Shown here in pieces: positions 10,254 through 63,878 of a stretch of DNA of 64,000 nt. This DNA comes from an uncultured Bacteroidota bacterium. Its GTDB lineage: Bacteria; Bacteroidota; Bacteroidia; Chitinophagales; Chitinophagaceae. The notes under the pieces are model-generated. The model saw only the letters and a list, made by a program, of their open reading frames with translations, ran no database searches and had not been told where the DNA came from. The DNA is taken from positions 223,453 through 287,452 of the forward strand of contig CAWDYB010000010.1 of NCBI GenBank assembly GCA_963806425.1, in the 5' to 3' direction. The number at the start of each line of letters is the position of its first letter. Position 1 is the first letter of the stretch. The position numbers were made by a program, and so were the translations under genes.

Positions 10254-10351
10254 GAGCCCACTTTTCTTGTTATTTCATTTAATAAAACTCGTTTTCCATA
10301 TAACTTTTTAATATTTAGATAACAAGATTTAGCAGATTTAATTGAAAAAAT

Positions 10352-10885
10352 TTGTTTAAGTTTGTGTGCCTACAAATTAAACATAATATTATGTCTACCG
10401 GCGAATTTACCAACATACTGCTTTCAAACACAGAGCACCTGAAGCCCTTTGCCATAACCCTTACAAAAAACCCTGAAACAGCCGGCGACCTTATACAGGA
10501 GACCTTTTACCGCGCCTATATTAATAAAGATAAATACAATAACGGCACAAATATGAAAGCATGGTTATATACAATTATGCGAAATATTTTTATTAATGAT
10601 TATAGGCGAAATGTTAAACAACGGTACATCGTTGAAAAACAGTTTCAGCCTTTTAATAATTACGTGCTTAATGCCGCGGGCACCGAAATGCAGTTAAAGG
10701 AAATTAAAATGGCAATAGCCAAATTGCCTCTTATATTTAAACAACCTTTTGTACTCTTTTATAATGGATATAAGTACAGTGAAATTGCAGAATTATTAGA
10801 GGAACCTTTAGGAACTATTAAAAGCCGTATTCACTTCGCCCGCAAATTCCTTAAAACGCATATTACTAATCAGGAAAATAATTAA
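10352..10885 (+). CDS. ECF-type RNA polymerase sigma-70 family factor
   Basis: 177 aa, with the likely true start at ATG 10391 (MSTGEF). Region 2 reads DLIQETFYRAY...WLYTIMRNIFINDYRR and region 4 reads YSEIAELLEEPLGTIKSRIHFARK. Confidence 0.85.
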   Translation: MFKFVCLQIKHNIMSTGEFTNILLSNTEHLKPFAITLTKNPETAGDLIQETFYRAYINKDKYNNGTNMKAWLYTIMRNIFINDYRRNVKQRYIVEKQFQPFNNYVLNAAGTEMQLKEIKMAIAKLPLIFKQPFVLFYNGYKYSEIAELLEEPLGTIKSRIHFARKFLKTHITNQENN

Positions 10886-10886
10886 A

Positions 10887-12364
10887 CTGACAAACAAAAA
10901 TATCATAGTAATCGGTTGTGGATTTTCCGGACTTTCGGCAGCGTGCTACCTGGCTAAAGCTGGCGCCTCTGTTACAATTGTGGAAAAGCATGATTCACCG
11001 GGTGGGCGTGCAAGGCAACTAAAAGAAGCCGGGTTTACATTCGACATGGGCCCGAGCTGGTATTGGATGCCTGATGTTATTGAAAATTTCTTTCAGCATT
11101 TTGATAAAACTGTAAGTGATTATTACCAGTTAAAAAGACTTGATCCGAGTTACAAAATTTATTGGAAAAATGAAGCTGTTGCTGTTCCTGCAGATTACAA
11201 TGCATTAAAGAAAACTTTTAATGATATTGAAAAAGGAAGTGGAGAAAAATTAGATGAATTTATTGTACAGGCTGCTTATAAATACAAAACAGGCATGCAG
11301 AAGCTGGCTTACAAACCCGGTAATTCATTTACAGAATTTCTTGAGGCAGATGTAATTAAAGGCTTGTTTAAGCTTGATCTTTTTAGTTCTATAAAGTCGC
11401 ATGTATCAAAATATTTTAAAAGTGAAAAGCTACAGCAGCTTATGGAATTTCCCGTATTATTTCTTGGGGCTTTACCAAAAGATATTCCGGCCATGTATAG
11501 CCTGATGAATTATGCAGATATTATTGGCGGCACATGGTATCCAAAAGGTGGCATGTTCAGCATTATTAAAGCCATGGAAAAACTAGCCATAGAGCTGGGT
11601 GTGAAAATAAAATACAATAGCAATGTAACATCTTTTGGTTTTAGGCACGGGCACATTAATCATGTTCAGGTAAATGATGATGACCTTCTCGAATGCGATA
11701 CAGTGGTTGCTTCAGCTGACTATCATTTTGTGGAAACAAAACTTTTACCTCAGAAATACAGAAGTTATTCTGAAAAGTATTGGGAAACCCGCGTTATGGC
11801 GCCGGGGTGTTTACTGTACTATGTTGGTTTAAATAAGAAGCTTAAAAATCTTACGCATCATTCACTTTTTTTTGATGCTGATTTTGAAAAGCATGGCAAA
11901 GAGATCTATAGCAGCAGGGAATGGCCTGAAAACCCACTGTTTTATGTATGCGCTGCTTCTGTTACAGATGCCGGGGTTGCGCCGGAAAATGGAGAAAATC
12001 TTTTTTTTCTTATTCCTGTTGCTGCGGGGTTAAAGGGCGATAGCGAAGAATTACGTCAAAAATATTTCAACATTATTACTGAAAGATTTTACCGAAATAC
12101 GGGTGAGGATATAAGGAAGAACATAGTGTATAAAAAATCTTTTGGCTATTCAGATTTTGTAAATGATTACAATGCTTTTAAGGGTAATGCTTACGGTCTT
12201 GCCAATACATTACGGCAAACTGCCATGCTTAAGCCCGCTATTAAAAGCAAAAAAATAAATAACCTATATTATACTGGTCAGCTAACCGTACCTGGCCCGG
12301 TGTTCCACCGAGTATAATCAGCGGCGAAATTGTAGCAAAGCAAATAATATCAAAGTGGCAGTAA
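10887..12364 (+). CDS. crtI: phytoene desaturase, with no canonical start codon and a 3'-terminal frameshift
   Basis: The track ORF 10980-12317 lacks the FAD fold. The same frame stays open upstream, reading LTNKNIIVIGCGFSGLSAACYLAKAGASVTIVEKHDSPGG from CTG 10887. Near 12299 one G appears to be missing. The shifted frame then gives PGPGVPPSIISGEIVAKQIISKWQ, ending at 12364. Confidence 0.85.
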
Positions 12365-12399
12365 TTATTTATGCTTCATAATTATTAAAAAAGAAATGC

Positions 12400-13236
12400 A
12401 TGATGCACCTATTCACAACCGTAAGCAGAAACTGTAGCCGAATTACAACGGAAACATATAGTACATCTTTTTCATTGGCCATTAAGCTGCTGCACAAAGA
12501 CCTTCGGCAACACATTCATAATATTTATGGGTTTGTGCGCTTTGCCGATGAGATCGTTGATACATTTCATGCGTATGAAAAAAGCACACTGCTGCAGGAA
12601 TTTAGAAAAGAAACATTTACCGCAATCGAAAGAAAAATAAGTTTAAACCCCATTCTTAACAGCCTTCAGGAAACGGTTAACCGGTTTAATATTGATCTGC
12701 AACTGATCCATGAATTCTTTTTTAGCATGGAATGGGATCTTGACAAAAAAGCGTATTCTCAACTAGAATATAACAGGTATGTTTTTGGAAGTTCAGAAGC
12801 TGTAGGTTTAATGTGCCTCCACGTTTTTTGTGAAGGCGATAAAACATCTTTCCTCAAATTAATGCCTGCCGCCAAAAGCCTTGGGGCAGCATTTCAAAAA
12901 GTGAATTTTTTAAGAGATGCCCAGGCAGATTATACCCAATTGAACAGGGTTTATTTTCCCAAATGCGATTTATCCAACTTTACCTTAAAAGATAAACTTG
13001 CCATCGAGGCCGATATACAAACAGATTTTGCAATGGCTTATACAGGCATTAAGCAACTGCCGCCAAAAGCAAGGTTTGGCGTTTTTGTAGCATATAAATA
13101 TTATTTATCGCTTTTTAGAAAGATAAAAGCTGTTGAGCCCGCCCAAATAATGCAATCTCGCATTCGCGTGGCCGACAGCAGCAAAATATTGATTCTCGCT
13201 AAAGCCGGCCTGCAGCGCCAATTGAACTTATTGTAA
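12400..13236 (+). CDS. crtB: phytoene synthase
   Basis: 278 aa squalene/phytoene synthase family protein with FVRFADEIVD and NFLRDAQADY Asp-rich motifs. It follows crtI. Confidence 0.9.
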   Translation: MMHLFTTVSRNCSRITTETYSTSFSLAIKLLHKDLRQHIHNIYGFVRFADEIVDTFHAYEKSTLLQEFRKETFTAIERKISLNPILNSLQETVNRFNIDLQLIHEFFFSMEWDLDKKAYSQLEYNRYVFGSSEAVGLMCLHVFCEGDKTSFLKLMPAAKSLGAAFQKVNFLRDAQADYTQLNRVYFPKCDLSNFTLKDKLAIEADIQTDFAMAYTGIKQLPPKARFGVFVAYKYYLSLFRKIKAVEPAQIMQSRIRVADSSKILILAKAGLQRQLNLL

Positions 13237-44245: not shown

Positions 44246-45466
44246 TTATTGCGTTAATATCTTTCCTTTCTTACTTAAATTGAATATTAGAAATCCTAAT
44301 GCGATCATCAGCAAAAACACAGCCGCCAGCAAAAACGTAGTTGATATCTCTACCACTTTCAATAACGGAAAAATTATTACCGGGGATAAAAACTGCCCCA
44401 TAAACCAGAAGGTGGTCAATTTTCCAATTTCCTTCCCGCGGATTTGCGGAGGCGCAATCTTCATAACCCACATGTTAGTATTTGGTATCATCATACCCAT
44501 TCCAAAACCTGCGAGCATCATAGATATCAAAACCAGTATATAAGTACTTGCAAAAGCAATACAAACAAATGCGCCAGACATTAATAAATATCCTGCAAAG
44601 AAAATGGTAAGAAAGTTAAACCTGTTTTTGATTTTAGAATACGAAATGGAAGATATGGCTGAAAAGGCAGTGCTTGTTGCTATGGCTGCACCTATCATGG
44701 CATTTTTTTCTACACCCATTCCTTTTAAAAGAAACGGAACCTGAACAGGAATAAGAAAGAAAATGATCCACATGATCATCGTATTAATAAACAACATCCA
44801 GATGATGGAAGGCGATGCAATTTTTCTTCCCATTTCTCCTTTTGTATGAGCCATTTTTGCCGGCTCTTTTAAAAAAATAATACTTAAGGGCAAAACCAGT
44901 AAAGAAGATAAATAAATTAAAAAGGGATACCGCCATCCAATATCAGCAAGAATTCCTCCCAGCGTAATAAAAATAATTCCTCCCAAAGACATAAAGGCGA
45001 TTTGTAAACCAACAAATTTTTGCCGTTCAATTCCTTCAAAATAATCGGCGATAAGTGTTATTACAATGGTCATGGACATGCCTACAGCCAAGCCTAAAAC
45101 AGCCCTTGAAATCATTATGTAATACAGGTTGTCTAAATAAAATCCGGCCGAACCTGCAATAGCGTATAGCAGCAATGCTATCCATAAAATTTTAAGCCTG
45201 CCATACGTGTCTATCAGCCTTCCTGCTATGGGTGAAAACAGCGCTATCATCAAGGCAGGCAAAGTCAGCACCAGCTTCACTAAAAATTCTGCGTTTTCAA
45301 TTGCTGCATATGTCTTTGCCATTTGTGGTAAGGCAGGTGAAATAGTTATCACAGACATTATGGTAAGACTGCTTACTAATAAAAGGGTAAGTTTAACTTT
45401 CCAGTTATGATCTTGTACATGAACAACATTGCCATGCCCTGTTTCTAAGGTTGAAGGGGATTGCAT
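44246..45466 (-). CDS. MFS transporter
   Basis: 406 aa with 12 predicted TM helices and an MFS loop motif (GRLIDTYGR). Confidence 0.85.
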   Translation of the reverse strand: MQSPSTLETGHGNVVHVQDHNWKVKLTLLLVSSLTIMSVITISPALPQMAKTYAAIENAEFLVKLVLTLPALMIALFSPIAGRLIDTYGRLKILWIALLLYAIAGSAGFYLDNLYYIMISRAVLGLAVGMSMTIVITLIADYFEGIERQKFVGLQIAFMSLGGIIFITLGGILADIGWRYPFLIYLSSLLVLPLSIIFLKEPAKMAHTKGEMGRKIASPSIIWMLFINTMIMWIIFFLIPVQVPFLLKGMGVEKNAMIGAAIATSTAFSAISSISYSKIKNRFNFLTIFFAGYLLMSGAFVCIAFASTYILVLISMMLAGFGMGMMIPNTNMWVMKIAPPQIRGKEIGKLTTFWFMGQFLSPVIIFPLLKVVEISTTFLLAAVFLLMIALGFLIFNLSKKGKILTQ

Positions 45467-49653: not shown

Positions 49654-50070
49654 ATGACTACACTTACGGTTAAAGATGTTTGCGCCAAAATGCGTAAACT
49701 GGATATTTGCATGATGACCTCCACGCAGGCAAATGGTAAACTTGTTTGCAGACCCATGTCTAATAACGGTGAGGTGGAATATGATGGTAACTCTTATTTC
49801 TATTCTTATGAAAGCTCATCAATCACTAAGCATTTAAAAGAAAATAATAATGTAAACCTTGCTTTTCAGGGTAAAGACATGCTGTATATTTCAGTTGAAG
49901 GCAAAGGAAAACTTATTAAAAGCAAGGAAAAAATAAAAGCGCATTGGGATAAGTCGCTGGAAAGGTGGTTCGAGAATGGTCCGGATACAGAAGGCATTAT
50001 ATTGATTCATGTTGCTGCCAAACAAATAAAATACTGGCACAAAGAAGAGCAGGGTGAATTGAATTTATAA
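49654..50070 (+). CDS. pyridoxamine 5'-phosphate oxidase-like / general stress protein 26 family
   Basis: 138 aa with a split-barrel FMN-binding-like pattern (ICMMTS...RPMS...LAFQG...IHVAAKQIKYW). Confidence 0.65.
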   Translation: MTTLTVKDVCAKMRKLDICMMTSTQANGKLVCRPMSNNGEVEYDGNSYFYSYESSSITKHLKENNNVNLAFQGKDMLYISVEGKGKLIKSKEKIKAHWDKSLERWFENGPDTEGIILIHVAAKQIKYWHKEEQGELNL

Positions 50071-51253
50071 TTCCAATACCTCTTTAATACTAAGGCTAAT
50101 TAAGCCGCATGCTTCTTTCAATTCATCATCACTAATACATAATGGTGGTGCAATGCGCAGGCATTCCGGGGCAAACAAAAACCAATCAGTTATTAAGCCA
50201 TTTTTAATACAAGTATTAACGACTTTTTTATTGGTATTAAAATCTGTAAACTGTAACGATGCCCATAGTCCTGCCGTATTTGTTTTTATAATATGGGGGG
50301 ATGGAATTTCTCTTGCTAAAATTTTTTCTTTACTTTTTACCTGTTGTATCCAGTCGCTGTTAATTAAAACCTTCAATGCAGCCAAACCTGCGGCACACGA
50401 TACGGGATGTCCGCCGAAAGTGCTAATGTGCCCTAACACAGGTTCTGTAGTTAAAGCCTTCATTAAATTTTTATCAGCTATAAAAGCGCCCAGTGGCATG
50501 CCTCCGCCTAAAGCTTTACCAAGCAATAATATATCAGGAACAATGTTGTACTGCTCAAATGCCCACAGCGTCCCTGTTCTGCCAAATCCGCACTGCACTT
50601 CATCAAGTATCAACAATGTTTCGTTGTGTTTGCAGCGTTCTGATAATGATTTCAGCCATTCCCTATCAGGGTTTATTACCCCACTTTCTGCCTGCACTGT
50701 TTCCAGAATAACGCAGGCTGTTTGTTCATCAATTGCATCAATGGCATTATAGCAGTTGTAATCATAATGTTGAATGCCCGGCAATAATGGTCGGTAAGCA
50801 TTTCTCCAGTATTCATCTCCCATTACACTTAACGATCCCTGTGTGCTGCCATGATAACTTTTATTGAATGCAATAATGTTTGGCGCCGGTAACTCTTTTA
50901 GAAAGCTTCATTGCACCTTCTGTAGCTTCGGTTCCGCTGTTGGTAAAATACACACTGTTTAACGTAGAAGGCAGGTGGTCTGTAAGTAATTTTGCATAAG
51001 CGGTTTGGGGCGCTTCGATAAATTCTCCGTAAACAATTAAATGCATATAATTGGCGGCCTGTTGTTGAACTGCCGCCACTACGTCGGGATGTGAATGCCC
51101 TATGTTTGCAACACTAAAACCGGCAATAAGATCTACATACTTTTTACCTGTAACATCGTACTGAAAAATGCCTGAAGCCTTTACAATTTCGAGGGCAATG
51201 GGTTCGCCGCTGGTTTGTGCAATGTGTTTAAAGAATAACTGTCGATAATTCAT
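50065..51253 (-). pseudogene. class III (acetylornithine/ornithine-type) aminotransferase, one frameshift
   Basis: ORFs 50861-51262 and 50065-50823 are contiguous. Removing one base near 50879 gives ...KRVTGAKIIAFNKSYHGSTQGSLSVMGDEYW. LILDEVQCGFGRTG and the PLP Lys region LLGKALGGG are present. Confidence 0.85.
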
Positions 51254-51304
51254 TCCATGCAAAGATGGTGAATACCTTTAAAATTGGCAGGATATAGTAT
51301 TGCG

Positions 51305-53013: not shown

Positions 53014-54265
53014 CTATACATGTTTGGGTATTTCCTCCCCGGAGTTTTTTTGCAGTTTATTTAGCCCAATAAGCAAAACAATAAGAATCACGATAGGAAT
53101 TATGGAAAGATAAAACGCTTTTTGCCCGCCATAGGCTTCAAAAATATGACCGGTTACTATTGAGCCGGTAGTACCGCCAAGGGCAGAAAAAACAACAATA
53201 AGTCCAGACATCGCGCCATGCTGGTGTTTTGGCAGGTTGCTTAAAATAACAGAATTAATAGCCGGATACACCGGTGCAATAAACAAACCTATCAGCGGAA
53301 AAATAAAGGCAACCAAAGGAGCATCTGACCAGGAGGTAATATTTGTGTTTGTAATATTTTCTGCCAGCGGCACGGTTAATAAAACCAACGCACCTGCACC
53401 TAACAGGCAAATCAGCAATACTAAAAACCAATGCACATTACGCAATAGCAGCCCGGCTATAAATCTGCCTAATGCTGTAGATGCAGCAAGTATGCTTGCC
53501 ATTTGAATGCTTAAAGTTGCCGGCAATTTTAGAACCTGGCTGTTAAAGGTGGGCAGCCAGCTCATTATGCTTTGTTCTATTAAAACATAAATAAAGGCAC
53601 TGGCAATAAATACGAGTACCAATGCTTTACCCAGCAGCTTCAGCATGTCACCAAATTCTTCAGCGAAAGATTTTTTATCTTCTTCCTTTACTTCAGATTC
53701 ATCCAGCTTGCTGGTTAACAGCAAAACAAATGCGGCAGCGGCAAATGGCCAGCAAATAATAGACGTTTAGCCACGATTCTGACCGTGGATTTTGATCGTC
53801 TACAAATGCACTGAAAATAAAGTAGCCTGAAAGAATGCCCACCATAAAAAAGCTCTCAATAAAATTCATGAAAGCTCGCAGTGGTCTTTTTTGTTGGTGG
53901 TTATAATACCCAATGGTAGCGTAAACAGAAACTTTAATAAGTGCAAAACTTACACCCACCACTGCAAACAAAAGTTTGGTCATGGCAAAGCCACCGAGCG
54001 CAGGCATAATTAAACAGGCAATAGTAACAAAAGCCAGGGCAGGCAACATAGATTTTTTGTAACCGATCCGCACAACGTACGACCCAATTAAAAAAGATGT
54101 AACGGCTATGCTCAGGTCTTTAAAAGCTTCAAGAACACTTGCTGTGCCCTGGCTAACATCATAATTATTTTGTACCTGTAATATTACCGTGCCTACGCTA
54201 TTAAGTAAAATGGCGAATATGAAATAATTAATGAAGAGCGAGATCTTAATGCGTAAATTTTGCAT
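53014..54265 (-). pseudogene. sugar-type MFS transporter (FucP/GlcP-like), frameshifted
   Basis: ORFs 53699-54265 and 53014-53724 are the N and C halves of one 12-TM MFS protein. The frame change is near 53700-53760. Confidence 0.8.
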
Positions 54266-54421: not shown

Positions 54422-55497
54422 TTAAAATCTAAAAGTCACCCCTGCATTTACAGTATAATCGGCAAATGCCGCATCACCTGTATATGCCTGCTTTGTTATG
54501 GCAGTGCGGTGCAAATCGGGTACGCTTTGAACCCTGTTTCTTTCAACGGCTACAGGCACATAAGCATAAACAGTTATTTTCTCTTTATTATAAGAAACAC
54601 CGGGTTCTGCAGATACTATGTACCCGGGTCTTCTAAAGCCTTCGCTGCCACCAAAAACATCTTTTGCCGGAAGCCCTTCAAGGCGCATGCCCGCAGATAA
54701 ACTTATGTTGTGCTGCCTTACATTAATACCCGCACGAACCAGGTATTGATCCGGTACACTCATAACATTGCTTCCGTATTGAATACTTGCAGGTGATGAA
54801 ACACCGCCCCTGGCTGTAGATACGCCATTTTGTTCCCGAGGGTTAAACAGGTAAAAAGTATTTGCATAAGCACTAATGTTTTTGCCAAAATTATAGAAGG
54901 CATTTACTTCTGCCGTCAAACCGGTGCCGCCATCTCCCAACTGGATAGACTGATCAACAGGCCCTAAAGATTTTGATGAATCATTAAAAAAATAATCCTG
55001 GTATTTGTAATCGCCTGTTGGCAATTTAATGCCTGCGCCGAACTGTACATTAGCTTTCATATATTTTGCGGGGTTCAATAACCAAACATACCCTGCTATC
55101 CGTATGTCGCCTAGACGAAAGATTTAGTACTGTGCCTTGCTACATTAGCATGTTCATACAAAGAAGTTCTAGTATTTGAAAGCAATGGAACATTCATGTT
55201 TACCGACCACCTGTTGGTAATGTATCGCGTTAAGGTTACATCCATCGTATATGAATAATTGATAACCTGGGTTCCTGAATCTACGCGTTGTTTCTGTTCA
55301 ACCTTTCCGGAAAAATGGCGGAATGATTTGAAATAACGGTTGTTTACATTTAATGCCCAAGTACCAGGCACCTGCAACTGGTGCAGGGTGCACATGCCAC
55401 CTGTGCCTCTTAAAGCTATGCAACCCTGCGCCGTAGTGTTGTTGGTAATGAAACATAATATTGCCATAACACTTAATAGTGAAAAAAAATATCTCAT
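54422..55497 (-). pseudogene. outer-membrane beta-barrel (MetA/phenol-pathway-like transporter family), frameshifted
   Basis: ORF 55111-55497 (signal peptide, alternating beta-strand pattern) and ORF 54422-55078 (ending in an aromatic ...GVTFRF) are parts of one barrel. The break is near 55080-55110. Confidence 0.6.
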
Positions 55498-55559
55498 GAC
55501 AGTTAATTGAATGGTTTAAGGAATATTTTTAAAATGCCCTTTAATAGAGCCTTATAATC

Positions 55560-56918
55560 TTAATGTTGGATTGAATTGGCAACTATTTCATCCTGTTTTT
55601 TCATTTTAAGACGATGCACTACAAATTCGCCAACCTTTCTGCCCTGCAGATTGCCGATATCACACGAATATTTATAATGAATTCCTCCGTATACGCGGGA
55701 TATTGCAGCTTCTTTAGCAGCTTCCCTTACGGATGGAAAGGAACGAACCGTTAATCCGAATTCAGCTTCGGAAGAATCGGTGAAGGCGACATTATCGCCA
55801 TAAATATCCGTCATTACTTCTGCGGCTGCAGCCGATATAACGGCATGGCCGCTGGTGTATTCTGGAAAAGGAGGTGTTTGTATATATGGCTGCCAGTCTG
55901 CATCGAAATATTTATTGATCATGGTTTCGGGGCGCACATAATTGCTACGGTATTTCTCATCCCATGTGCTTATAAAGGCTTCGAAAAGTGCCACCGATGT
56001 TTTAGCATAGGCATATACAGTGGTAGAGAAGTCCGCTTTTTTTTCTTTGCTAATTATACCAACAATATTCATCCAGTGGCCTGCAGGAGAAAACTTTTTA
56101 GTGGCATACATTACATGCCCGATAACATTCATTTTAAAAGCATTATCGTCCCAGAAATCGGCAATTCTTTTCTGCTCATCATTTAATGTGTCAACAATTT
56201 GTTTTACTTCCATAAGGGCTTTATAATACTGGCAATTGGTATCATCTACATTACACATGGGAGGAGGTATGGGACGAAATTGCGAACATGTATCCATCAA
56301 CATGGGTCGAACCTTCATCCAGTGCGGCTCTAGGCCCTGCGCATACATGGGTGGGGTAGGAACCCAGCGGCCCATTGTATCTGTAACAGTAAACTTTGGT
56401 GCGCTGCGCAGTTCGGCATAATTATCTTTTTTACTCCAGTTTAAAATGGCATCAGCTATGGCATTTGAAAAAGCCTCACTGTTTTTTAAAACAGAAGAAG
56501 GTATGCCGGCATTGTCGGCTTTGTTTTTAAGTTCTTTTACATAAACATCCATACTACCCTCGGGAAAAGTTACCGCATTGCCCACCTTGCAAAATGCAAG
56601 CATTGAGGCCAGGTGATAATCTATTTCCTGATGCGCGGGGGCTTTAGGCAGGGGTGGCAACGATTTTAACTGCCCTGCTAAGGAAACGTAATTGGAGTCT
56701 GATGCTGCGATCACTTCATAGGCGGCAATATTTGCATAAGCATAATTGCGTGCAGCAATCATCGGGGGAAAATTATTTTCCAGCACTATATCATTTAATT
56801 TCTTAACGGTTTTAGAATATAGTAACGGGTCGTGAATGGTAGTTTTATAGTCTTCATTATTACTGCAGGAGGCAAACAAAACCAGTAAAGGCAGTAAGCA
56901 TATATATATCTTTTTCAT
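55560..56918 (-). CDS. PAP2-superfamily / vanadium-dependent haloperoxidase-like lipoprotein
   Basis: 452 aa with lipobox LFASC and the complete motif set: KYRSNYVRP (K-x6-RP), YTSGHA (PSGH-like) and SRVYGGIHY (SR-x5-H). Confidence 0.8.
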   Translation of the reverse strand: MKKIYICLLPLLVLFASCSNNEDYKTTIHDPLLYSKTVKKLNDIVLENNFPPMIAARNYAYANIAAYEVIAASDSNYVSLAGQLKSLPPLPKAPAHQEIDYHLASMLAFCKVGNAVTFPEGSMDVYVKELKNKADNAGIPSSVLKNSEAFSNAIADAILNWSKKDNYAELRSAPKFTVTDTMGRWVPTPPMYAQGLEPHWMKVRPMLMDTCSQFRPIPPPMCNVDDTNCQYYKALMEVKQIVDTLNDEQKRIADFWDDNAFKMNVIGHVMYATKKFSPAGHWMNIVGIISKEKKADFSTTVYAYAKTSVALFEAFISTWDEKYRSNYVRPETMINKYFDADWQPYIQTPPFPEYTSGHAVISAAAAEVMTDIYGDNVAFTDSSEAEFGLTVRSFPSVREAAKEAAISRVYGGIHYKYSCDIGNLQGRKVGEFVVHRLKMKKQDEIVANSIQH

Positions 56919-56980
56919 TGTAGAATTATAGCATGAACAGAAAGATCCGTTTGCAACGGTAATTTAATTGCGATAAAAAT

Positions 56981-57529
56981 TTATGCTATAACTCGCGGGG
57001 GTTTTTTACATACATCTTCCGGCTGATAAGCATAGGAAGAATGATAATAAAGGCTAAAGGATTGGGTGGATGAAAAGGTTAATAGATTATGCAGGGTTTC
57101 ATGTATTTCTTTATCAAAAGAGAATTGTTTATAGTTATCAGCTTTTTTGTTTTCGTTGTTAAGAGGCAGGCCATTTACTTTTCCATAATAATCATTTGCC
57201 TTATTGGCAATCTCGGTTTTTTCTGTATTGGCAATGCACATAAGAATCAATGTGTCATTATACAGTTTGCGTTTTACATACGTGTAAGTTGTGCCTTTTA
57301 TGGTTATTTCTCCTTTTGTTCTTTCAAAGCTTTCCCAGTTGGTTTGGTAGGGAAGATTAACTGGCACTTTTAGGGTAATAAGATCTGCATCCTGGTAATC
57401 TCCCTGGTCAAGCCGGGCTTCCATGGTGGCATCGGCAGAATCTCTGGCATAATCAACTAACACTTTAAATCCTATGATATTAAAGAAAAATAAAACAAGT
57501 AATAATATGGCAGCGATCTTTTTTCCCAT
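56981..57529 (-). CDS. hypothetical single-pass membrane protein
   Basis: 182 aa with an N-terminal TM helix. I recognise no motif. It is co-directional within the cluster. Confidence 0.5.
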   Translation of the reverse strand: MGKKIAAILLLVLFFFNIIGFKVLVDYARDSADATMEARLDQGDYQDADLITLKVPVNLPYQTNWESFERTKGEITIKGTTYTYVKRKLYNDTLILMCIANTEKTEIANKANDYYGKVNGLPLNNENKKADNYKQFSFDKEIHETLHNLLTFSSTQSFSLYYHSSYAYQPEDVCKKPPRVIA

Positions 57530-57653
57530 TTGTAAAAAGGAGACATCCAGTACTGCAAATTAAGTGAAATTTTTACGACCTGTTCTATTTAAGCCCAACG
57601 CATCCTTACCAACCTGTTAAAATTTTATACAATAGAACATTAACTGAGCCGCT

Positions 57654-58329
57654 TTACATGGCAATAATTCTTTCTATAGTCCAGTATGCAGCCACCAGGG
57701 CAATAAAAATTGAAATAGGAGTAACAATATACCTGCGGTAATGCTGTATGCGTCCGAAAGGAAGAATGATCAGGCACAAAAACAAGCAGTATTACTATTA
57801 CCTGCCCAAGCTCTACACCAACATTAAAGGACAGAATGGAGGTAACAAATTGTCCGGGCGGAATGCCAACCTCGTTTAATGCGCTTGCAAACCCCAACCC
57901 ATGAATAAGACCAAAGAAAAATACGATAGCAATACGCCAGAATTTGAGTTCATTCAACAAAATATTTTCAATAGCTACAAAAACAATTGACAAAGCTATT
58001 ATGGGTTCAACCACCTCACCAGGTGCTACGATAACACTTTTAATGCTGAGCGCAAGGGTTATGGAATGGGCAACAGTGAATGCCGTTGCCTGCCAAAGTA
58101 TGGTTTTTAATTTTTTGCTTAACAGGCAAAGGCTTACTACAAATAATATATGATCTACACCAAGTGGAATAATATGTAAAATGCCCATTTTGATATAGAA
58201 CCAGGCCACTTCATGGGTGGGCAGGTCTTTCATGGCATAATTAATTACCGGATGCGCCTGCACCTGTTCTGCTAACAGCATGAAAAGAAATGCCAGTAAT
58301 ATTGGCAGTAAGCGATAATACCCTTTCAT
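57654..58329 (-). CDS. HupE/UreJ family membrane protein, probable 3' frameshift
   Basis: Signal peptide ending QAHP, plus HILFVVSL, AFTVAHSITLA, GLIHGLGFA and VGVELGQ motifs. Near 57770 the frame shifts. The alternative frame gives a final TM helix (...IVTPISIFIALVAAYWTIERIIAM) ending at 57654, while the track ORF ends at 57640. Confidence 0.8.
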
Positions 58330-58333
58330 GTTA

Positions 58334-59680
58334 CTACAGGGTTTTTAATACGGTTGAAGCCTCCGTTCTCAGTTCTGAAGGCAGGTTAGCCTTACCATTT
58401 ACAGCCTGGCTTAAAAAGTTTTTGGCCTCAGCAGGTTTATTGTTTTTGGCAAAAATTAAGCCCGCGCGTGTTAGTAAAACAGGATTTTTAGAATTGGTTT
58501 TTAAGGCTGTTTGTACATAGGGCAATGCCTTTGCGTACTCGCCTTTTTTATATAGTACCCAGGCCATACAATTATTTACATCAATATTTTCGGGGCGACG
58601 GTTATATTCCTGTGTAGCGTGATCGAATGCCTTATTCATTTCATTTGCCTGCACATAGGCATATGCAAGTTCCATATCCACATAATGCCCAATGCTTTCA
58701 TCCTCTACGCCGCTTTGAGCTTCTTCGGTCATTTCTTTAATTATGCTATTCAGTATTTCATTGGCTTTTTGCGTATCGCCTGCCTGCCTGTAAACAGCCG
58801 CCAGGTTTTCTCTTATTCCAAAATCATTGATTAAAGCAGATGCCTGGGTAGCTAAATCTATAGCACTTTTAAGATCATTTCGGTAAGTAGCAATTCTTGA
58901 TAACCCTGCCAGTGCAAAGGGGTAGTTGGGGCGCTCCATCAATGCAATTTTATATTGCATTTCAGCCTTATCAATTTCTCCGGTATTTTCAAGTAAGTGA
59001 CCCAATTGAATTCTAGCCCATTCGGTTGCTTCATCGCCGGGTATGCCGGACTCAATAGCAGATTCCATAATATCAATGGCGCCAGGGTAATCGCCATGAA
59101 TTTCCCGCAGGTAAGAAACCCGGGAATAGGACCGAAGATCGGGTCTTATATCAATCATTTTTTGGGCATCTGACACGGCCTCCTGATAGTTGCCCATTTC
59201 AACATTACCATCCACCAATATTCCGTATACAAAAGCATTGTAAGGATTTATTTTTTGCGCCTGCTGGGCAGCGGCAAGGCCTTCTGCAAAATGGTGTTGA
59301 GATATATATAATAGGCTTTTTAGGGTAAGCGATTCAAAATTATTTGGTTGCACGGCTAGGGCATCATCCACATATTTCATGGCTGCCTTATCATAATAAG
59401 CATAATTGCCTGTTATTCTCGCTTCTTGTATGTACAGTGTTGCAAGTTTATTAAGTGCTGCTACATCAGCCGGATCTTCATTAATGGAAGCAAGGTAATC
59501 AGCTGCATTTTTTTGGGTTAGTGCCCATTGTGGGTCCTGTTCCGATGTGTGGGCCCTTTTAAGCAGCGTGTAGGTTACCTTTTCTTCAGTAGTTTTTTTA
59601 TTACTGTAAGAAAAAATAATAATACCGATGGCTGCTGCGAAAACAACCACAAGTAAAGTGTAAATAGATTTCTTTTTCAT
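58334..59680 (-). CDS. tetratricopeptide repeat protein with N-terminal membrane anchor
   Basis: 448 aa with one N-terminal TM helix followed by repeated TPR-like A/Y/G-patterned helices. Confidence 0.8.
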   Translation of the reverse strand: MKKKSIYTLLVVVFAAAIGIIIFSYSNKKTTEEKVTYTLLKRAHTSEQDPQWALTQKNAADYLASINEDPADVAALNKLATLYIQEARITGNYAYYDKAAMKYVDDALAVQPNNFESLTLKSLLYISQHHFAEGLAAAQQAQKINPYNAFVYGILVDGNVEMGNYQEAVSDAQKMIDIRPDLRSYSRVSYLREIHGDYPGAIDIMESAIESGIPGDEATEWARIQLGHLLENTGEIDKAEMQYKIALMERPNYPFALAGLSRIATYRNDLKSAIDLATQASALINDFGIRENLAAVYRQAGDTQKANEILNSIIKEMTEEAQSGVEDESIGHYVDMELAYAYVQANEMNKAFDHATQEYNRRPENIDVNNCMAWVLYKKGEYAKALPYVQTALKTNSKNPVLLTRAGLIFAKNNKPAEAKNFLSQAVNGKANLPSELRTEASTVLKTL

Positions 59681-59781
59681 GATGCGAAATTTTTAAGATG
59701 ATGAGTCTTTTACCATTTAATTCTGTGTTTGTAAAACCTGTTTAAAACACGCCATATTTACGAATATTGGGGCAGCAAAGA

Positions 59782-59818
59782 TTTATTTAATGCATATATA
59801 CAGTATATATTAAATAAA
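59782..59818. promoter_or_regulatory. AT-rich near-palindrome upstream of the TPR/HupE unit, sharing a 15-mer with 63805-63819
   Basis: The sequence tttatttaatgcatatatacagtatatattaaataaa contains the palindrome atatatac-a-gtatatat. tttaatgcatatata (59786-59800) differs from tttattgcatatata (63805-63819) at one position. Confidence 0.45.
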
Positions 59819-59855
59819 AAAAGCCTGCAACAATTAAGCTGCAGGCCTTTTTTTT
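59816..59855. terminator. bidirectional terminator after DUF4331 paralog B
   Basis: gcctgca-10 nt-tgcaggc stem flanked by A7 on the left and T8 on the right. Confidence 0.7.
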
Positions 59856-59867
59856 AAGTTTTAGTAA

Positions 59868-61944
59868 TTATTGTTTGATCAAACTTATGGTTTGAGTTGG
59901 GATACCATTAATTACGGTATTTACGAAGTAAACACCTTTTGGCATTCCACCTGCATTCCACTCTACATTGTAATTGCCTGCCTGCTGTTTCTGGTTAACC
60001 AGAGCTTTGGCAAGTTTTCCATTCTGGTAGTATATACCTATTACAACATTAGATGCTGATTCCAGGTGATACTTAATCATGGTTGAATTTACCAGAGGAT
60101 TTGGAGAAGCAGAGGCAATTGCTGCCGGAGCTGCAATGCTTAAGTTACTCATTGGCTGCCTGTCAGAGCCTGGTACTATTTGAGGAGCACCGCTTTCTGT
60201 CGGAGCAGGGATACCGCAACAAGTTGCCGTTCCCATCCACGGGGTTTGAACATAAGGGAACCTGCTTAGGAAAGTGGTATCATTCTTTTCAATACCAGTT
60301 GTATATCCAAGCACTCTTAATAACTGTGGAGTAACCAATGATCCTCCTGTAATATAATCATCGTATGGTAAGCCTATAGCTGCTAAAACAACGCCGCTAA
60401 CTGCCTGTAATTCAATACGGGTTACATCATCTTCCAGCCTTCTTCCGTTAGGAAAACCATCCATATTAGGAATGAACTCCAGGTTGGCATTACCATTATA
60501 AGCAGGGTCCGTTAATCCAAGAACTGCTGCCTGAATAAGACCAAGAGAACTGAATTTAGGATCGGTTCTGGAAGTAACAGGTACAGCCATATTTAACCGT
60601 AGCATATCTCCACCATTAGGTAAAAAGTTATTTACGAATGGTTTACCTGCTGCGAAGCGGATCACCATTTTTGCCTGTTGCCAATTGGTACGGGCTAAGA
60701 TTGGGAACACCGGTATGGAAGATTGGCCAAATATCTACAGAGCGTGGCTGTCCAGGTCCGGGTAATAGTAAACTTCCGAAAGCATCTTCGTCAAGTGCTG
60801 TACCCTCTACAGCCGGAGTACCTTTTAAAGGGTATAAACCATCCTGACCATTATTAAATCCATATGCGCCCAGAGAGTTTCTTTGAATGCGCAGGTCCCT
60901 GAAAGCCGGAACAGCAATAGCAAATGCTGTATTGTCCATATAAAGTGCCAACTCAGGGTTATAGAAATAATTGCCAAAACTGTGCAGGTAGCTAAGGTCC
61001 TGGTAAGGAGTAAGTGAATTCCAAAGGTCTTTACTGTCCGATAGGAATAACTGCCTCATTGGTCAATGGCATTCCCAGATCTTGAAACCTGAACATACCT
61101 GCCACTTTCAGTTTGTGTACCATCACCATTCAATACACGGGATGATTCTTCTGCTTGCAGAAGCCCATACACCGATAATGTAGTCAGGATCTAAAATGTT
61201 GGCAGCCATGCTGACAGGCTGGTGATCTTTTTGAAGTTCACTTATATCTACCTGAATAGCGATAGCGGAAACGTTTTTACAGGCGAGTCCATCATACTTA
61301 ACACCTTCTGTACGTGGAACATTACCAAGGTCAAAAATACCGCCAAGGTCTACAAAGAAAGGATCATCTGCAGGTCCGCAATAGATCTTTTCGCCAGTTT
61401 GAGCCGTAGTGGTACCTTTTCTTATCAGTTGCCTGTAATTTGAAACACCTAAACCAACCACCGGATCGCTGATAGAACGTGGTCCGATATAAGGAGGAGG
61501 AACCATTCCACCGCCCCTGATAACCTGGAAGGTGGCGCCTCCATCGGTGCTTCTTTCTACTTTGTATGTGGTTTTCAGGTTTTCTTTACCAAGACGAATG
61601 TTGAAGAAGGTTGTAGGATCTTCATTCGTTCTTTTAAATGTAAACCGGTATATAATATCATCCCCGGGGGTAGCAAGATTATTATCAATATGAATTTCAT
61701 AACGAACATTTTCTCCAAAGTGATAATAATTCGGACCGCCTTGTGGTAATTGCATGGGTATGTAACATGCAATAATGGTAACCTTATTCGGATTGTCAGG
61801 GCTGCGGAAAGCATACAAATCTGTATTGTCCGCTAACGGATCATTAGAAATGAGCGGCGCCTCCCTGTGGCTCGATGCCGCAGCGGGTAAGGTAAACCCA
61901 ACTGCAAGAGCCAGTATTAGCGCCAAATGAATAATTCTTTTCAT
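59868..61944 (-). pseudogene. DUF4331 family protein with T9SS C-terminal sorting domain (paralog B), multiple frameshifts
   Basis: ORFs 61123-61944, 60643-61059 and 59868-60710 align along the intact paralog A. At least four frame changes fall within 61020-61140 and one near 60650-60700. The C-terminus SPNPLVNSTMIKYHL...VYFVNTVINGIPTQTISLIKQ is a T9SS CTD. Confidence 0.8.
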
Positions 61945-61958
61945 AATAAAAATATTTT

Positions 61959-63689
61959 TTAGTTAGTAACTAATGTGCCCCTCCACGGTAATTGTACGAA
62001 AGGAAAGTTTGCCTGGAATGTGGTGTCGTTTCTATTTACTCCGGTGCTGTATCCAAGTACATCAAGCAGATCCTGAGTTACAAGAGTAGAACCATCATAA
62101 TCATCGTAAGGAAGACCAATTGCTGCCAGTACAACGCCACCTACAGCCTGTAATTCAATACGGGTTACATCATCTTCAAGCCTTCTTCCGTTAGGAAATC
62201 CATCCATATTTGGAATGAACTGAAGATTAGCATTTCCGTTATAAGCAGGGTCTGTTAAACCAAGAACTGCTGCCTGAACAAGTCCAAGAGAACTAAATTT
62301 AGGGTCATTTCTTGGGGTTACAGGTACAGCCATATTAAGGCGTAACATATCGCCGCCATTAGGTAAAAAGTTATTTACAAATGGTTTGCCTACAGCAAGT
62401 GGGTCACCGTTTTTGCCGGTAGCCAGCTGGTATGGGGGCAGGTTTGGAACTCCTGTATGAAAAACTGGCCAAATATCCACTGACCTTGGTTGTCCTGGTC
62501 CGGGAAGTAATAAACTGCCAAATGCATCTTCATCAAGGGCAGTGCCTTCTACAGCAGGGGTGCCTTTAAGCGGGTAAAGACCATCCTGTCCGTTACCGAA
62601 TCCGAAAGTACCCAGAGAATTTTTCTGAATTCTTAATGGTTCAAATGCGGGAACCGCAGCGGCAAAATAAGCGCTGTCCATATAAAGGGCAAGCTCAGGG
62701 TTGTAATAGAAATTTCCGAAAGTGGAAAGGTTTGCCAGGTCCTGGTAAGGAGTCAATGAATTCCAAAGGTCTTTGTAACCGATTGGAACAACTGCTTCAT
62801 TATTTAAAGGCATTCCTAAACGAGAAACCTGAACCCAGGGTCCTTTATGAGTAACTGAATCTGTACCTGGTTGTAATACCCTGGTAGATTTACGGCTGGC
62901 AGATGCCCAAACACCAATAATATAATTGGGGTCAAGAATATCTGAAGCCATAGTTACGGGCTTGTGGTCTTTCTGAATATCCTGGATGTTTACCTGAATA
63001 CAAATGGCATGGGTATTATAATGGCCCAAACCATCGCGTGGCTGACCATTCTGGCGGGGTGCATCACCCACATCGAAAATACCTCCAAGGTCAACAAAAA
63101 ACGGATCATCCATAGGTCCGCAGAAAATGGTTTCTCCACTTTTTGCAGTAGTAATGGCGTTAAATGACAAAGCAGCGTAGCTCGAATTTAATCCATAAGT
63201 GCCACCGATAGATCTAGCGCCAATATCGTTTGGCGGAACAACACCGTTAGTAACAATGGTCTTAAATGTTGCACCACCATCCAGACTTTTCTGGCATTTG
63301 TAGGTAGTTTTTAAGTTTTGTTTTCCAAGGCGGATGTTGAAAAAGGTTGTCGTGTCTTCGTTTACGCTGGAAAAAGTAAACCTGTAAATAATATCATCAC
63401 CCGGTGTAGCAAGGTTGTTGTCGATGTGTACTTCGTAACGCACATCACTACCAAAGGTGTAATAATTTGGACCGCCATAAGGCAGTTCAGCCGGTATGTA
63501 ATTGGCAATAATCACGATCTTATTGTCATTTACCGGGCTTTTAAAAACATAGAGGTCCGTGTTATCGGCCAATGGATCATCGGCGATCAGCGGAGCCTCC
63601 CTGTGACTGGAACTCATAAGAACGCCCGATATACCTAATGCAAATAGCACAGGAATAAGCATTCTCTTTGCTCTTTTTCTGAAGTTCAT
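61959..63689 (-). CDS. DUF4331 family secreted protein (paralog A, no T9SS CTD)
   Basis: 576 aa with a signal peptide followed by SSHREAPLIADDPLADNTDLYVF, the conserved N-terminal DUF4331 signature. It lies 14 nt upstream of paralog B. Confidence 0.8.
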   Translation of the reverse strand: MNFRKRAKRMLIPVLFALGISGVLMSSSHREAPLIADDPLADNTDLYVFKSPVNDNKIVIIANYIPAELPYGGPNYYTFGSDVRYEVHIDNNLATPGDDIIYRFTFSSVNEDTTTFFNIRLGKQNLKTTYKCQKSLDGGATFKTIVTNGVVPPNDIGARSIGGTYGLNSSYAALSFNAITTAKSGETIFCGPMDDPFFVDLGGIFDVGDAPRQNGQPRDGLGHYNTHAICIQVNIQDIQKDHKPVTMASDILDPNYIIGVWASASRKSTRVLQPGTDSVTHKGPWVQVSRLGMPLNNEAVVPIGYKDLWNSLTPYQDLANLSTFGNFYYNPELALYMDSAYFAAAVPAFEPLRIQKNSLGTFGFGNGQDGLYPLKGTPAVEGTALDEDAFGSLLLPGPGQPRSVDIWPVFHTGVPNLPPYQLATGKNGDPLAVGKPFVNNFLPNGGDMLRLNMAVPVTPRNDPKFSSLGLVQAAVLGLTDPAYNGNANLQFIPNMDGFPNGRRLEDDVTRIELQAVGGVVLAAIGLPYDDYDGSTLVTQDLLDVLGYSTGVNRNDTTFQANFPFVQLPWRGTLVTN

Positions 63690-63717
63690 AAATGTTTGAT
63701 TTAATAATGAAGAATAA

Positions 63718-63745
63718 AAAGCAGCATTGTAGTTAAAGCTGCTTT
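63718..63745 (-). promoter_or_regulatory. terminator-like hairpin in the 5' leader of DUF4331 paralog A
   Basis: The minus-strand RNA reads AAAGCAGC-UUUAACUACAAU-GCUGCUUU followed by UUAUUCUUC. The hairpin ends 28 nt before the ATG at 63689. Confidence 0.4.
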
Positions 63746-63804
63746 AGCGAATTATATATACGAAATGTTAACAGCCGGCAGATTTTCAAAACCCCAATGA
63801 TTTT

Positions 63805-63834: not shown

Positions 63835-63838
63835 CCAA

Positions 63839-63861
63839 AAACCCCCGTAAAACGGGGGTTT
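63839..63861 (-). terminator. intrinsic terminator of the upstream minus-strand gene
   Basis: aacccccg-taaaa-cgggggtt hairpin followed on the minus strand by a T-rich tract. Confidence 0.7.
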
Positions 63862-63878
63862 CAATAAAAAATACCAAT

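Follow-up and report, generated by a model that had tools for sequence, protein, structure and literature searches.

A DUF4331/TPR/HupE-UreJ-2 module, probably for transition-metal capture, beside a separate vanadium haloperoxidase trio in a Chitinophagaceae genome

Gene content of the locus

We analyzed a 64-kb stretch of genomic DNA from an uncultured Chitinophagaceae bacterium (contig CAWDYB010000010.1; this whole stretch is hereafter the window, and coordinates are positions in it), focusing on seven co-directional minus-strand genes at 54422-63689, two of which encode proteins of the DUF4331 family. These genes and the regulatory features around them, which we group into two modules, are listed below in the direction of transcription. 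The nearest relative of the region is a locus (L137) with 83% nucleotide identity to the window.

57654-63785, minus strand: module 1, comprising promoter P1, DUF4331 paralog A, DUF4331 paralog B, a terminator, promoter P2, a tetratricopeptide repeat (TPR) protein and a HupE/UreJ-2 permease
63838-63862, minus strand: terminator hairpin of the preceding gene (11-bp stem with 6 GC pairs, then a T-run), the upstream border of module 1
63759-63785, minus strand: promoter P1 of the extracytoplasmic function (ECF) sigma type, AAATCT-N17-CGTA, ~70 nt upstream of the paralog A start codon
61959-63689, minus strand: DUF4331 paralog A, 576 aa, with a signal peptide and a predicted mature N-terminus Ser-Ser-His, predicted to be periplasmic or soluble
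59868-61944, minus strand: DUF4331 paralog B, with a C-terminal type IX secretion system (T9SS) type A sorting domain, predicted to be at the cell surface, frame-broken
59816-59853, minus strand: strong intrinsic terminator (16-bp stem, then a T-run) directly after paralog B
59759-59784, minus strand: promoter P2, ECF type, AAATCT-N16-CGTA, between this terminator and the TPR start codon
58334-59680, minus strand: TPR protein, 448 aa, with an N-terminal membrane anchor and matches to several TPR Pfam families
57654-58329, minus strand: HupE/UreJ-2 inner-membrane permease, 224 aa once corrected, with a signal peptide followed by His1 (VQA/HPV)
54422-57562, minus strand: module 2, comprising promoter P3, a 182-aa membrane protein, a vanadium haloperoxidase and a putative barrel
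57556-57562, minus strand: housekeeping-type -7 box TAATTTG, likely P3 of module 2, ~27 nt upstream of the 182-aa gene
56981-57529, minus strand: 182-aa single-pass membrane protein, the conserved upstream partner of the haloperoxidase
55560-56918, minus strand: vanadium-dependent haloperoxidase lipoprotein, 452 aa, lipobox FAS/C, homologue of a Zobellia galactanivorans iodoperoxidase
54422-55497, minus strand: putative outer-membrane barrel, ~358 aa, with a signal peptide and a C-terminal RF, the conserved downstream partner of the haloperoxidase

Paralog A matched the DUF4331 profile over its whole length (PF14224, positions 1-421 of 421, 409 bits, above the gathering score), and the three open reading frames (ORFs) of paralog B covered positions 1-237, 271-331 and 332-421 of the same profile. 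A T9SS domain was found in paralog B only, with 24.6 bits against TIGR04183 (cutoff 23) and 24.2 bits against PF18962, under the cutoff of 27 for that model. The permease belongs to HupE_UreJ_2 (PF13795; 152 bits, cutoff 24.5) and has a weak secondary match to PF04955 (33 bits). The TPR matches in the 448-aa protein are preceded by an N-terminal membrane helix, and the 182-aa single-pass protein matched nothing in Pfam, NCBIfam or the PDB. These results bear out most of the gene identities in a preliminary description of the locus that had been made from the letters alone: two DUF4331 paralogs, the second with a T9SS sorting domain and the first without, a membrane-anchored TPR protein, a polytopic HupE/UreJ-type protein and a single-pass protein of no recognizable family. 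Its layout of seven genes likewise stands in the ORF listing as regards the outer borders, the 14-nt gap between the paralogs and the 4-nt gap between the TPR and HupE genes, but three of the seven are not intact ORFs.

The interruptions are six 1-nt indels within 9.3 kb, most of them outside long homopolymers. Paralog B has four, so that it appears as three ORFs (61123-61944, 60643-61059 and 59868-60710, with frame changes near 61146, 61079, 61036 and 60654), HupE has one (near 57775), and the barrel gene has one, a base missing near 55115 that leaves two ORFs (55111-55497 and 54422-55078). Were these changes real, module 1 and the barrel would be decaying and the cluster non-functional in this organism. 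The number of indels and their position mostly outside long homopolymers would fit such decay, as would the state of neighboring genes outside the cluster (50065-51262 and 53014-54265), where a class-III aminotransferase appears as two ORFs that leave profile positions 110-184 between them uncovered and a major facilitator superfamily (MFS) transporter as two overlapping ORFs. Because these unrelated neighbors are split in the same manner and at a similar indel density, however, they suggest an indel-rich, under-polished long-read assembly. Against decay also stand the exclusively 1-nt size of the indels, with no in-frame stops or larger deletions seen in the three broken genes, the similarity of broken paralog B to its orthologues (69-73%), which is on a par with that of intact paralog A to its own (72-76%), and the intact copies in the nearest relative (paralog B of 690 aa and HupE of 224 aa in L137). 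Intact paralog B orthologues measure 686-692 aa in L001, L002 and L137, and the corrected window permease aligns end to end with the 224-aa L137 orthologue at 87% identity. We therefore read the frame changes as a product of under-polished assembly and consider decay rather unlikely.

DUF4331, TPR and permease genes occur together across phyla

The neighborhood of DUF4331 genes was examined in 83 loci, 80 of them the best matches to a DUF4331 alignment from species-representative genomes and three obtained by exact look-up, whose six-frame ORFs were searched with the window proteins. A TPR orthologue was present in 51 of the 56 loci with at least 3.5 kb of downstream sequence, usually directly after the last DUF4331 gene, and HupE_UreJ_2 in 26 of the same 56. 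Fifty loci offered room on both sides; here TPR was found in 45, HupE_UreJ_2 in 23 and a TonB-dependent receptor in 20, with either of the latter two in 32 loci and both in 11. When the flanking ORFs were clustered and compared to Pfam and NCBIfam, the commonest extra neighbor was this TonB-dependent receptor with a CarboxypepD_reg N-domain (24 loci, in 17 of which it lies directly downstream on the same strand), followed by ECF sigma factors resembling SigK (about 10 loci of Bacteroidota), sometimes accompanied by an RskA-type anti-sigma factor. The 64-kb window itself holds no orthologue of the receptor. The linkage of DUF4331 to an import-only receptor and an inner-membrane permease argues for uptake.

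Similar arrangements were recovered well outside the Bacteroidota. Look-ups of distant DUF4331 representatives mostly led to contigs too short for neighborhoods (neither paralog A nor a database entry 100% identical to it could be traced to a contig by exact look-up), and a tblastn search of plasmid and chromid records detected DUF4331 in 34 records, of which ten annotated regions were viewed. The order DUF4331, TPR, polytopic membrane protein was seen in six of these ten, the middle genes annotated as hypothetical in Proteobacteria proving to contain TPRs. The membrane protein is a PF13795 permease in the Marinobacter, Pseudoalteromonas, Comamonadaceae and Lichenicola triads and is NicO-like in Streptomyces anulatus, where it is annotated as a "nickel transporter", and NicO/DsbD_2-like in Nostoc; in Pseudoalteromonas, a SigK/RskA-like ECF pair lies directly upstream of the module. 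Overall, the order DUF4331, TPR and HupE/UreJ-2 or NicO-like permease recurs in Bacteroidota, Actinomycetota, Cyanobacteriota and Alpha-, Beta- and Gammaproteobacteria, with the permease as the cross-phylum constant and the receptor limited to Bacteroidota and relatives. The link between these three families thus reaches much further than the preliminary description had guessed.

The classical clients of such permeases (urease, hydrogenase and B12 genes) were unlinked to them except at one locus. There, in a Lewinellaceae metagenome-assembled genome (L023, 15679-20298), the TPR gene is followed immediately, on the other strand, by hypE, hypD and hypF, hypE being confirmed by Pfam and hypD and hypF recognized from their N-terminal sequences; this is a single-locus hint towards nickel. 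On an Adhaeribacter swui plasmid (L128, 14493-14966), the DUF4331-TPR pair is followed at a distance of 4 kb by a DUF305 gene, and a TonB-dependent receptor is divergent upstream. DUF305 is the domain type of the copper-binding protein CopM, and the plasmid gene is a weak single-locus hint towards copper.

All three core proteins of module 1 are predicted to be extracytoplasmic or membrane-bound, as indicated by signal peptides, the T9SS domain, sortase anchoring of the actinobacterial DUF4331 proteins and the signal peptides of TPR partners. Cleavable signal peptides on the homologous partners from Nostoc, Comamonadaceae and Marinobacter predict that the TPR domain faces the periplasm. Likewise, since actinobacterial DUF4331 proteins have a C-terminal anchor and an adjoining sortase gene, surface display seems to be conserved despite the differing machinery. 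DUF4331 genes with such a sortase neighbor are seen in L129 (13342-16923), a Streptomyces anulatus plasmid, and in L123 (2780-3517). In L129, a fasciclin-domain gene adjoins as well; the fasciclin proteins Mpt70 and Mpt83 make up the classical mycobacterial SigK/RskA regulon, and this neighbor echoes the SigK-like sigma genes adjoining Bacteroidota DUF4331. Three loci have a PorV-like gene (T9SS cargo shuttle, PF19572, 174 bits) directly upstream of the DUF4331 genes (e.g., L051, 7048-8178). In Proteobacteria, a lipoprotein of ~70-100 aa with a lipobox followed by a Gly-/acid-rich stretch is encoded directly after DUF4331 (L130, 9473-9718; L133, 1933-2148; L135, 8559-8864) and may be an extra lineage-specific component.

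The window permease shows GxDH and GLIHG motifs, and its signal peptide is predicted to be cleaved between Ala and His, leaving a histidine at position 1 (His1); the same cleavage is predicted for 28 of 28 Bacteroidota orthologues and for all six cross-phylum partners. Because the PF13795 match begins at residue 45, there is no room for an extra N-terminal domain, and no Ang domain (see below) is present in the window permease. The proteobacterial permeases adjoining DUF4331 are longer (367-406 aa) and have an additional N-terminal domain of ~175 aa, which in one case matches DUF6702 with 23.7 bits, just under the Pfam cutoff of 24. The Streptomyces anulatus and Nostoc punctiforme partners are NicO/DsbD_2-like and carry long His-rich loops resembling those of the efflux protein RcnA.

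An invariant predicted N-terminus on a fold without a solved relative

The preliminary description had pointed to a segment, SSHREAPLI..DPLADNTDLY, that is indeed carried by both paralogs. Its first residues, SSHREAP, follow directly on the signal peptide in both window paralogs and are present in 231 of 231 homologues having the N-terminal region. In an 86-sequence alignment, H29 is the only invariant histidine of DUF4331, and S27, S28, R30, E31, A32 and P33 are each at least 90% conserved; other invariant residues include D42, D45, Y85, D206, R290 and R502. We further surveyed the N-termini of 112 representatives of 50%-identity clusters. The histidine was invariant throughout and preceded by Ser-Ser in 97-99%; the residue three positions before it was Ala in 86%, and that five positions before it was small or aliphatic, which corresponds to the AxA pattern of a signal-peptidase site, while a hydrophobic signal core was recognized in 100 of the 112. 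Six representatives instead start with M-S-S-H, and one of these starts is backed by a Shine-Dalgarno site and by an upstream frame that lacks a signal peptide. In every DUF4331 member examined, the free N-terminus is predicted to carry His as its third residue, preceded by a residue other than Pro.

An H2N-X-X-His terminus is the signature of the amino-terminal Cu(II)/Ni(II) (ATCUN) site, known from serum albumin, histatin-5 and hepcidin. The constant of the DUF4331 family is thus predicted to be a mature chain beginning with an ATCUN-type motif. The metal-coordinating mature N-terminus proposed in the preliminary description is upheld insofar as a histidine directly after the signal peptide is real and family-wide; a metal-related role would be consistent with published experiments on HupE/UreJ-2 (PMC12537917).

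Sequence and profile searches of the PDB with DUF4331 gave no matches. An AlphaFold2 model of paralog A, run on the 86-sequence alignment, reached a mean pLDDT of 88.2 and a pTM of 0.90, with a beta-rich N-terminal half and a helical C-terminal half, and the best Foldseek match of this model in the PDB had an E-value of 0.019 and a TM-score below 0.15. As judged from the predicted structure, DUF4331 is a fold without a solved relative. The model is moderately confident over residues 27-30, and pLDDT is at least 88 from residue 31 onward; this pattern fits a short flexible tip on an ordered body. The family is large, with 3,755 representative clusters (50% identity) at E <= 1e-3, and our literature search found no paper naming DUF4331, PF14224 or SSHREAP.

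Shared ECF-type promoters and three probable transcription units

Both borders of the DUF4331 gene pair are recognizable in the window and in its nearest relative: L137 has a similar hairpin at the place matching 63838-63862 and an equivalent of the terminator after paralog B. The ECF-type motif occurs twice at module 1, at P1 and P2, in the window and again in L137, and at the P2 site also in L003 and L031. A CGTA -10 element with a fixed spacer of 16-17 nt is a hallmark of ECF-sigma promoters. Across the related loci, 27 of the 73 regions preceding a first DUF4331 gene contain AAATC[CT]-N16/17-CGTA, against 0.21 expected from shuffled sequences, and 54 strict occurrences in 1.29 Mb include 31 just upstream of DUF4331, four upstream of the TonB-dependent receptor and two upstream of TPR genes. 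A rough pattern search did not find this Bacteroidota motif upstream of the proteobacterial, actinobacterial and cyanobacterial genes. One additional match in the window (45140-45166, plus strand), antisense within an MFS gene and 406 nt before a sulfatase gene, was rejected as chance, 1.1 matches being expected per window.

The 182-aa gene is preceded in neither the window nor L137 by the ECF-type motif. It has instead the TAATTTG box, of the type of the Bacteroidota housekeeping -7 consensus TAnnTTTG, and the stretch GTCGTAAAAATTTCAC(T)TAATTTGCAGTA at P3 is conserved between the window and L137. With the ECF-type motif at P1 and P2, the terminator after paralog B and the TAATTTG box before the 182-aa gene, the seven genes seem to be organized in three transcription units, two of them under a common regulator. 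Read-through from HupE into the 182-aa gene is possible, since no strong terminator was found between them. A search of Rfam detected no riboswitch, the only matches being sub-threshold ones on the terminator hairpins.

The sole ECF sigma gene of the window (10352-10885) was considered as the cognate factor and rejected because it sits in a light/carotenoid-type cluster (9375-13236, plus strand) that encodes a CarH-like MerR regulator with B12-binding domains, this ECF sigma factor, an amine-oxidase-type desaturase and a phytoene synthase. It is unrelated to the SigK-like factor linked to DUF4331 elsewhere.

The haloperoxidase trio is a separate unit

The 452-aa lipoprotein carries the K-x6-RP, SGH and SR-x5-H motifs noted in the preliminary description, which had called it PAP2/vanadate-haloperoxidase-like and placed it in a candidate uncharacterized system. 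The protein itself is not uncharacterized: over residues 1-445 it is a full-length homologue of a characterized enzyme of solved structure, the vanadium-dependent iodoperoxidase Zg-VIPO1 of Zobellia galactanivorans (PDB 4CIT, E-value 2.4e-126), and the vanadate-site residues K322, R329, S356, G357, H358, R408 and H414 are all identical to the template. By sequence, it is an ordinary haloperoxidase and a member of a known enzyme family. The outer-membrane beta-barrel of the same description remains putative: it is favored by the signal peptide, the C-terminal residues RF and the conservation of the family, and neither Pfam nor the PDB yielded a match. In this family (alignment A2), the mature protein is predicted to start with Gln-Gly-Cys; Gly, Asp and Arg are invariant at many positions, as is a GDAAFA stretch close to the C-terminus (consensus GDAAFADY), and most members end in RF.

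In 39 metagenome loci fetched with the haloperoxidase (L084-L122), the 182-aa gene lies directly upstream of it in 25 of the 29 that extend far enough and the barrel downstream in 12 of the 17 that do so on that side. We know of no description of either protein as a haloperoxidase partner; as conserved neighbors of the enzyme, membrane protein and barrel are a minor, unexplained addition. At the place of the barrel, L137 encodes an unrelated 306-aa protein together with a second haloperoxidase-like protein. Many haloperoxidase loci have such a second, distant haloperoxidase-like gene (~516 aa, PAP2 61 bits) ~1 kb beyond the barrel position, among them L095, L100, L102, L103, L117 and L137 (19102-20652); it is absent from the window.

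The preliminary description had joined all seven genes into one metal or oxyanion (vanadate) system. On such a reading, HupE or DUF4331 would handle or supply the haloperoxidase cofactor. The genes are co-directional with short gaps, the order paralog A, paralog B, TPR, HupE, unknown, haloperoxidase is kept in L137 at 83% nucleotide identity, and transcription might, as noted, run on from HupE into the 182-aa gene. Against this, none of the 83 DUF4331 loci yielded the haloperoxidase, the barrel or the 182-aa protein, the corresponding search of the 39 haloperoxidase loci gave no DUF4331, TPR or HupE gene, and no haloperoxidase lies near DUF4331 in any of the ten cross-phylum records viewed; the juxtaposition of modules 1 and 2 is confined to the window and L137, and the two are preceded by promoters of different type, ECF before paralog A and TPR and housekeeping before the 182-aa gene. 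The neighborhood counts largely refute the seven-gene system, which we regard as very improbable. What survives of the idea is that DUF4331, TPR and HupE/UreJ belong together, a co-occurrence found in several phyla, and the oxyanion part falls with the exclusion of the haloperoxidase trio from module 1.

Interpretation of module 1 and alternatives

Taken together, these results point towards two independent neighboring modules, of which module 1 would be an ECF-sigma-controlled system for the capture in the envelope and import of a transition metal, most likely of the Cu(II)/Ni(II) type, and module 2 a separate haloperoxidase trio with its own promoter. We assign this reading a probability of about 60%. 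The metal binding, the transport direction, the role of the TPR protein and the metal identity that we infer for module 1 would combine as follows. The DUF4331 pair, one member soluble in the periplasm and the other displayed on the surface by the T9SS, would bind the ion through the invariant N-terminal Ser-Ser-His (X-X-His, ATCUN-type) on a body that lacks a solved relative. The membrane-anchored periplasmic TPR protein could act as an adaptor, perhaps by docking the SSHREAP peptide, and the ion would then pass to the N-terminal His1 of the HupE/UreJ-2 permease and across the inner membrane. In other lineages, the TonB-dependent receptor may provide the outer-membrane step, and a NicO-like permease may take the place of HupE/UreJ-2.

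Several points weigh against this reading. The loci are the 80 best matches plus ten plasmid records and not a random sample, HupE_UreJ_2 was found in only about half of the Bacteroidota loci, and 18 of the 50 with room on both sides have neither it nor a TonB-dependent receptor nearby. Paralog B and HupE are frame-shifted in this assembly, and no cognate sigma factor was found in the 64-kb window. At the N-terminus, S27, S28 and R30-P33 are as strongly conserved as stated above, whereas a classical ATCUN site needs no conservation at positions 1, 2 and 4-7, and this conservation therefore implies something more specific than the plain tripeptide; moreover, cleavage one or two residues later (ASS/H) would also meet the -3/-1 rule and give an N-terminal His instead. 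Finally, efflux pumps are among the NicO-family members with His-rich loops, and a connection with metal resistance has been made for RskA-type ECF groups (PMC7826278); import is therefore only the presumed direction of transport.

The latter observations lead to an alternative in which module 1 is a metal-stress system, DUF4331 sequestering surplus metal both on the cell surface and in the periplasm, with the permease exporting it, under an envelope-stress ECF sigma factor. The SigK/RskA-type pairs adjoining several loci would fit, given that an RskA-associated ECF group is tied to heavy-metal resistance genes in that study, and so would the RcnA-like loops of the Streptomyces and Nostoc NicO partners and the occurrence of several carriers on plasmids. 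Yet the commonest extra neighbor is an import-only receptor, preceded by the same promoter motif in four loci, and the HupE/UreJ members studied so far are importers (PMC12537917), so we consider this alternative unlikely. Another possibility is that DUF4331 is a secreted or surface metalloenzyme, in which the N-terminal His and invariant Asp and Tyr residues would hold a catalytic metal, with the TPR protein as maturation chaperone and the permease supplying or recycling the cofactor; its true function would in that case be catalysis on some surface substrate. A large protein of ~550 aa with many invariant residues besides H29, conservation of S27-P33 beyond ATCUN needs, and a dedicated T9SS or sortase display resembling that of secreted enzymes are all compatible with catalysis. 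They are set against the absence of similarity to any enzyme fold, a receptor and permease linkage typical of uptake, and the finding that the His1 domains of HupE/UreJ-2 proteins studied lack substantial catalytic activity (PMC12537917); an enzymatic role thus appears improbable.

A non-ionic ligand has also to be weighed, for instance haem, which DUF4331 might bind through His and Tyr ligands in hemophore-like fashion, or some other nutrient, either of which it would deliver to the TonB-dependent receptor, leaving the HupE link secondary. H29 and Y85 are both invariant, and the best NCBIfam matches of the linked receptors, although far below threshold, are to haem and haemoglobin receptor subfamilies. 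These matches are generic, however (75-87 bits against cutoffs above 310), and it is the ion-transporter permeases (PF13795, NicO-like) that are constant across phyla and the receptor that is restricted, making a haem system highly unlikely in our view.

Relation to known systems and implications

The closest published parallel to module 1 as a metal-capture system is the "Anglerase"-HupE/UreJ-2 apparatus. PF13795 proteins carry His1 (Franco Cairo et al. 2025, Nat Commun 16:9244; PMC12537917; PDB 9GCE), and the His1-bearing periplasmic domains of HupE/UreJ-2 bind Cu2+ with a Kd of 62-74 nM and Ni2+ with 220 nM, which led those authors to propose that His1 domains fish for metal and feed the permease (PMC12537917). 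In that article, DUF4331 appears only in a neighbor table of the source data, with a count of 2, and DUF4331, TPR and ATCUN are absent from the text (PMC12537917). Module 1 has a permease of the same family, with His1 after the signal peptide, and a periplasmic metal-binding element would likewise be proposed to feed it Cu or Ni; the DUF4331-linked permeases of Proteobacteria, with their extra ~175-aa N-terminal domain, are a further point of resemblance. Module 1 differs in that the 224-aa window permease has no fused Ang domain (a periplasmic beta-sandwich), that the binding candidates are separate proteins of ~550 aa with an unrelated fold and with the His at position 3 rather than 1, and that an obligatory TPR partner, surface display and ECF control are added. 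Relative to HupE/UreJ proper (PF04955) and the NiCoT/NicO transporters, the window permease is similarly polytopic and His-containing, with the GxDH and GLIHG motifs, but falls in the sister family PF13795. HupE/UreJ proteins are Ni/Co transporters (Zhang et al. 2009, PMC2667541).

The N-terminus of DUF4331 resembles ATCUN sites in its predicted X-X-His sequence, including the M-S-S-H forms without a signal peptide, and departs from them in the conservation of positions 1, 2 and 4-7 and in being a prediction from sequence. To our knowledge, no large bacterial protein family defined by an ATCUN site has been reported.

Exported or surface binding proteins are known from HasA-HasR-HasI/S haem uptake, from BtuG-BtuB in Bacteroidota and from the MopE/CorA copper-binding surface proteins of methanotrophs. 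The logic of a surface or secreted binding protein that works with a TonB-dependent receptor under ECF control recurs at DUF4331 loci, where an exported binding protein is joined by such an outer-membrane receptor (20 of 50 loci), an importer in the inner membrane and a pair of ECF sigma and anti-sigma factors. The proteins are unrelated in sequence and fold; the DUF4331-linked receptor has no signaling extension, the linked sigma factor is SigK/RskA-like and not FecI/FecR-like, and the window cluster lacks a receptor. Module 1 follows a known logic, that of an exported binding protein with an importer under ECF control, and builds it on a family without known function or fold.

We also put forward, tentatively and with the odds somewhat against it, that DUF4331 represents a new multi-phylum class of exported "protein metallophores", characterized by a Ser-Ser-His site, lineage-specific display by T9SS or sortase, hand-over of Cu or Ni by a periplasmic TPR adaptor to His1 permeases of the HupE/UreJ-2 or NicO type and SigK/RskA-type ECF control. 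The haloperoxidase trio stands as a separate unit that offers no basis for a vanadate or oxyanion link. Within the Bacteroidota, AAATCY-N16/17-CGTA defines a regulon and offers a means of finding more of its members. For DUF4331, a large family hitherto without function or structure, a concrete role and a partner set are now proposed. If the proposal is true, a trans-acting, surface-displayed component and a TPR adaptor would be added to the HupE/UreJ-2 metal-capture machinery, the 2025 approach of recognizing metalloproteins by a His at the N-terminus would extend from position 1 to position 3, and a function would be at hand for a family of more than 3,700 clusters at 50% identity.

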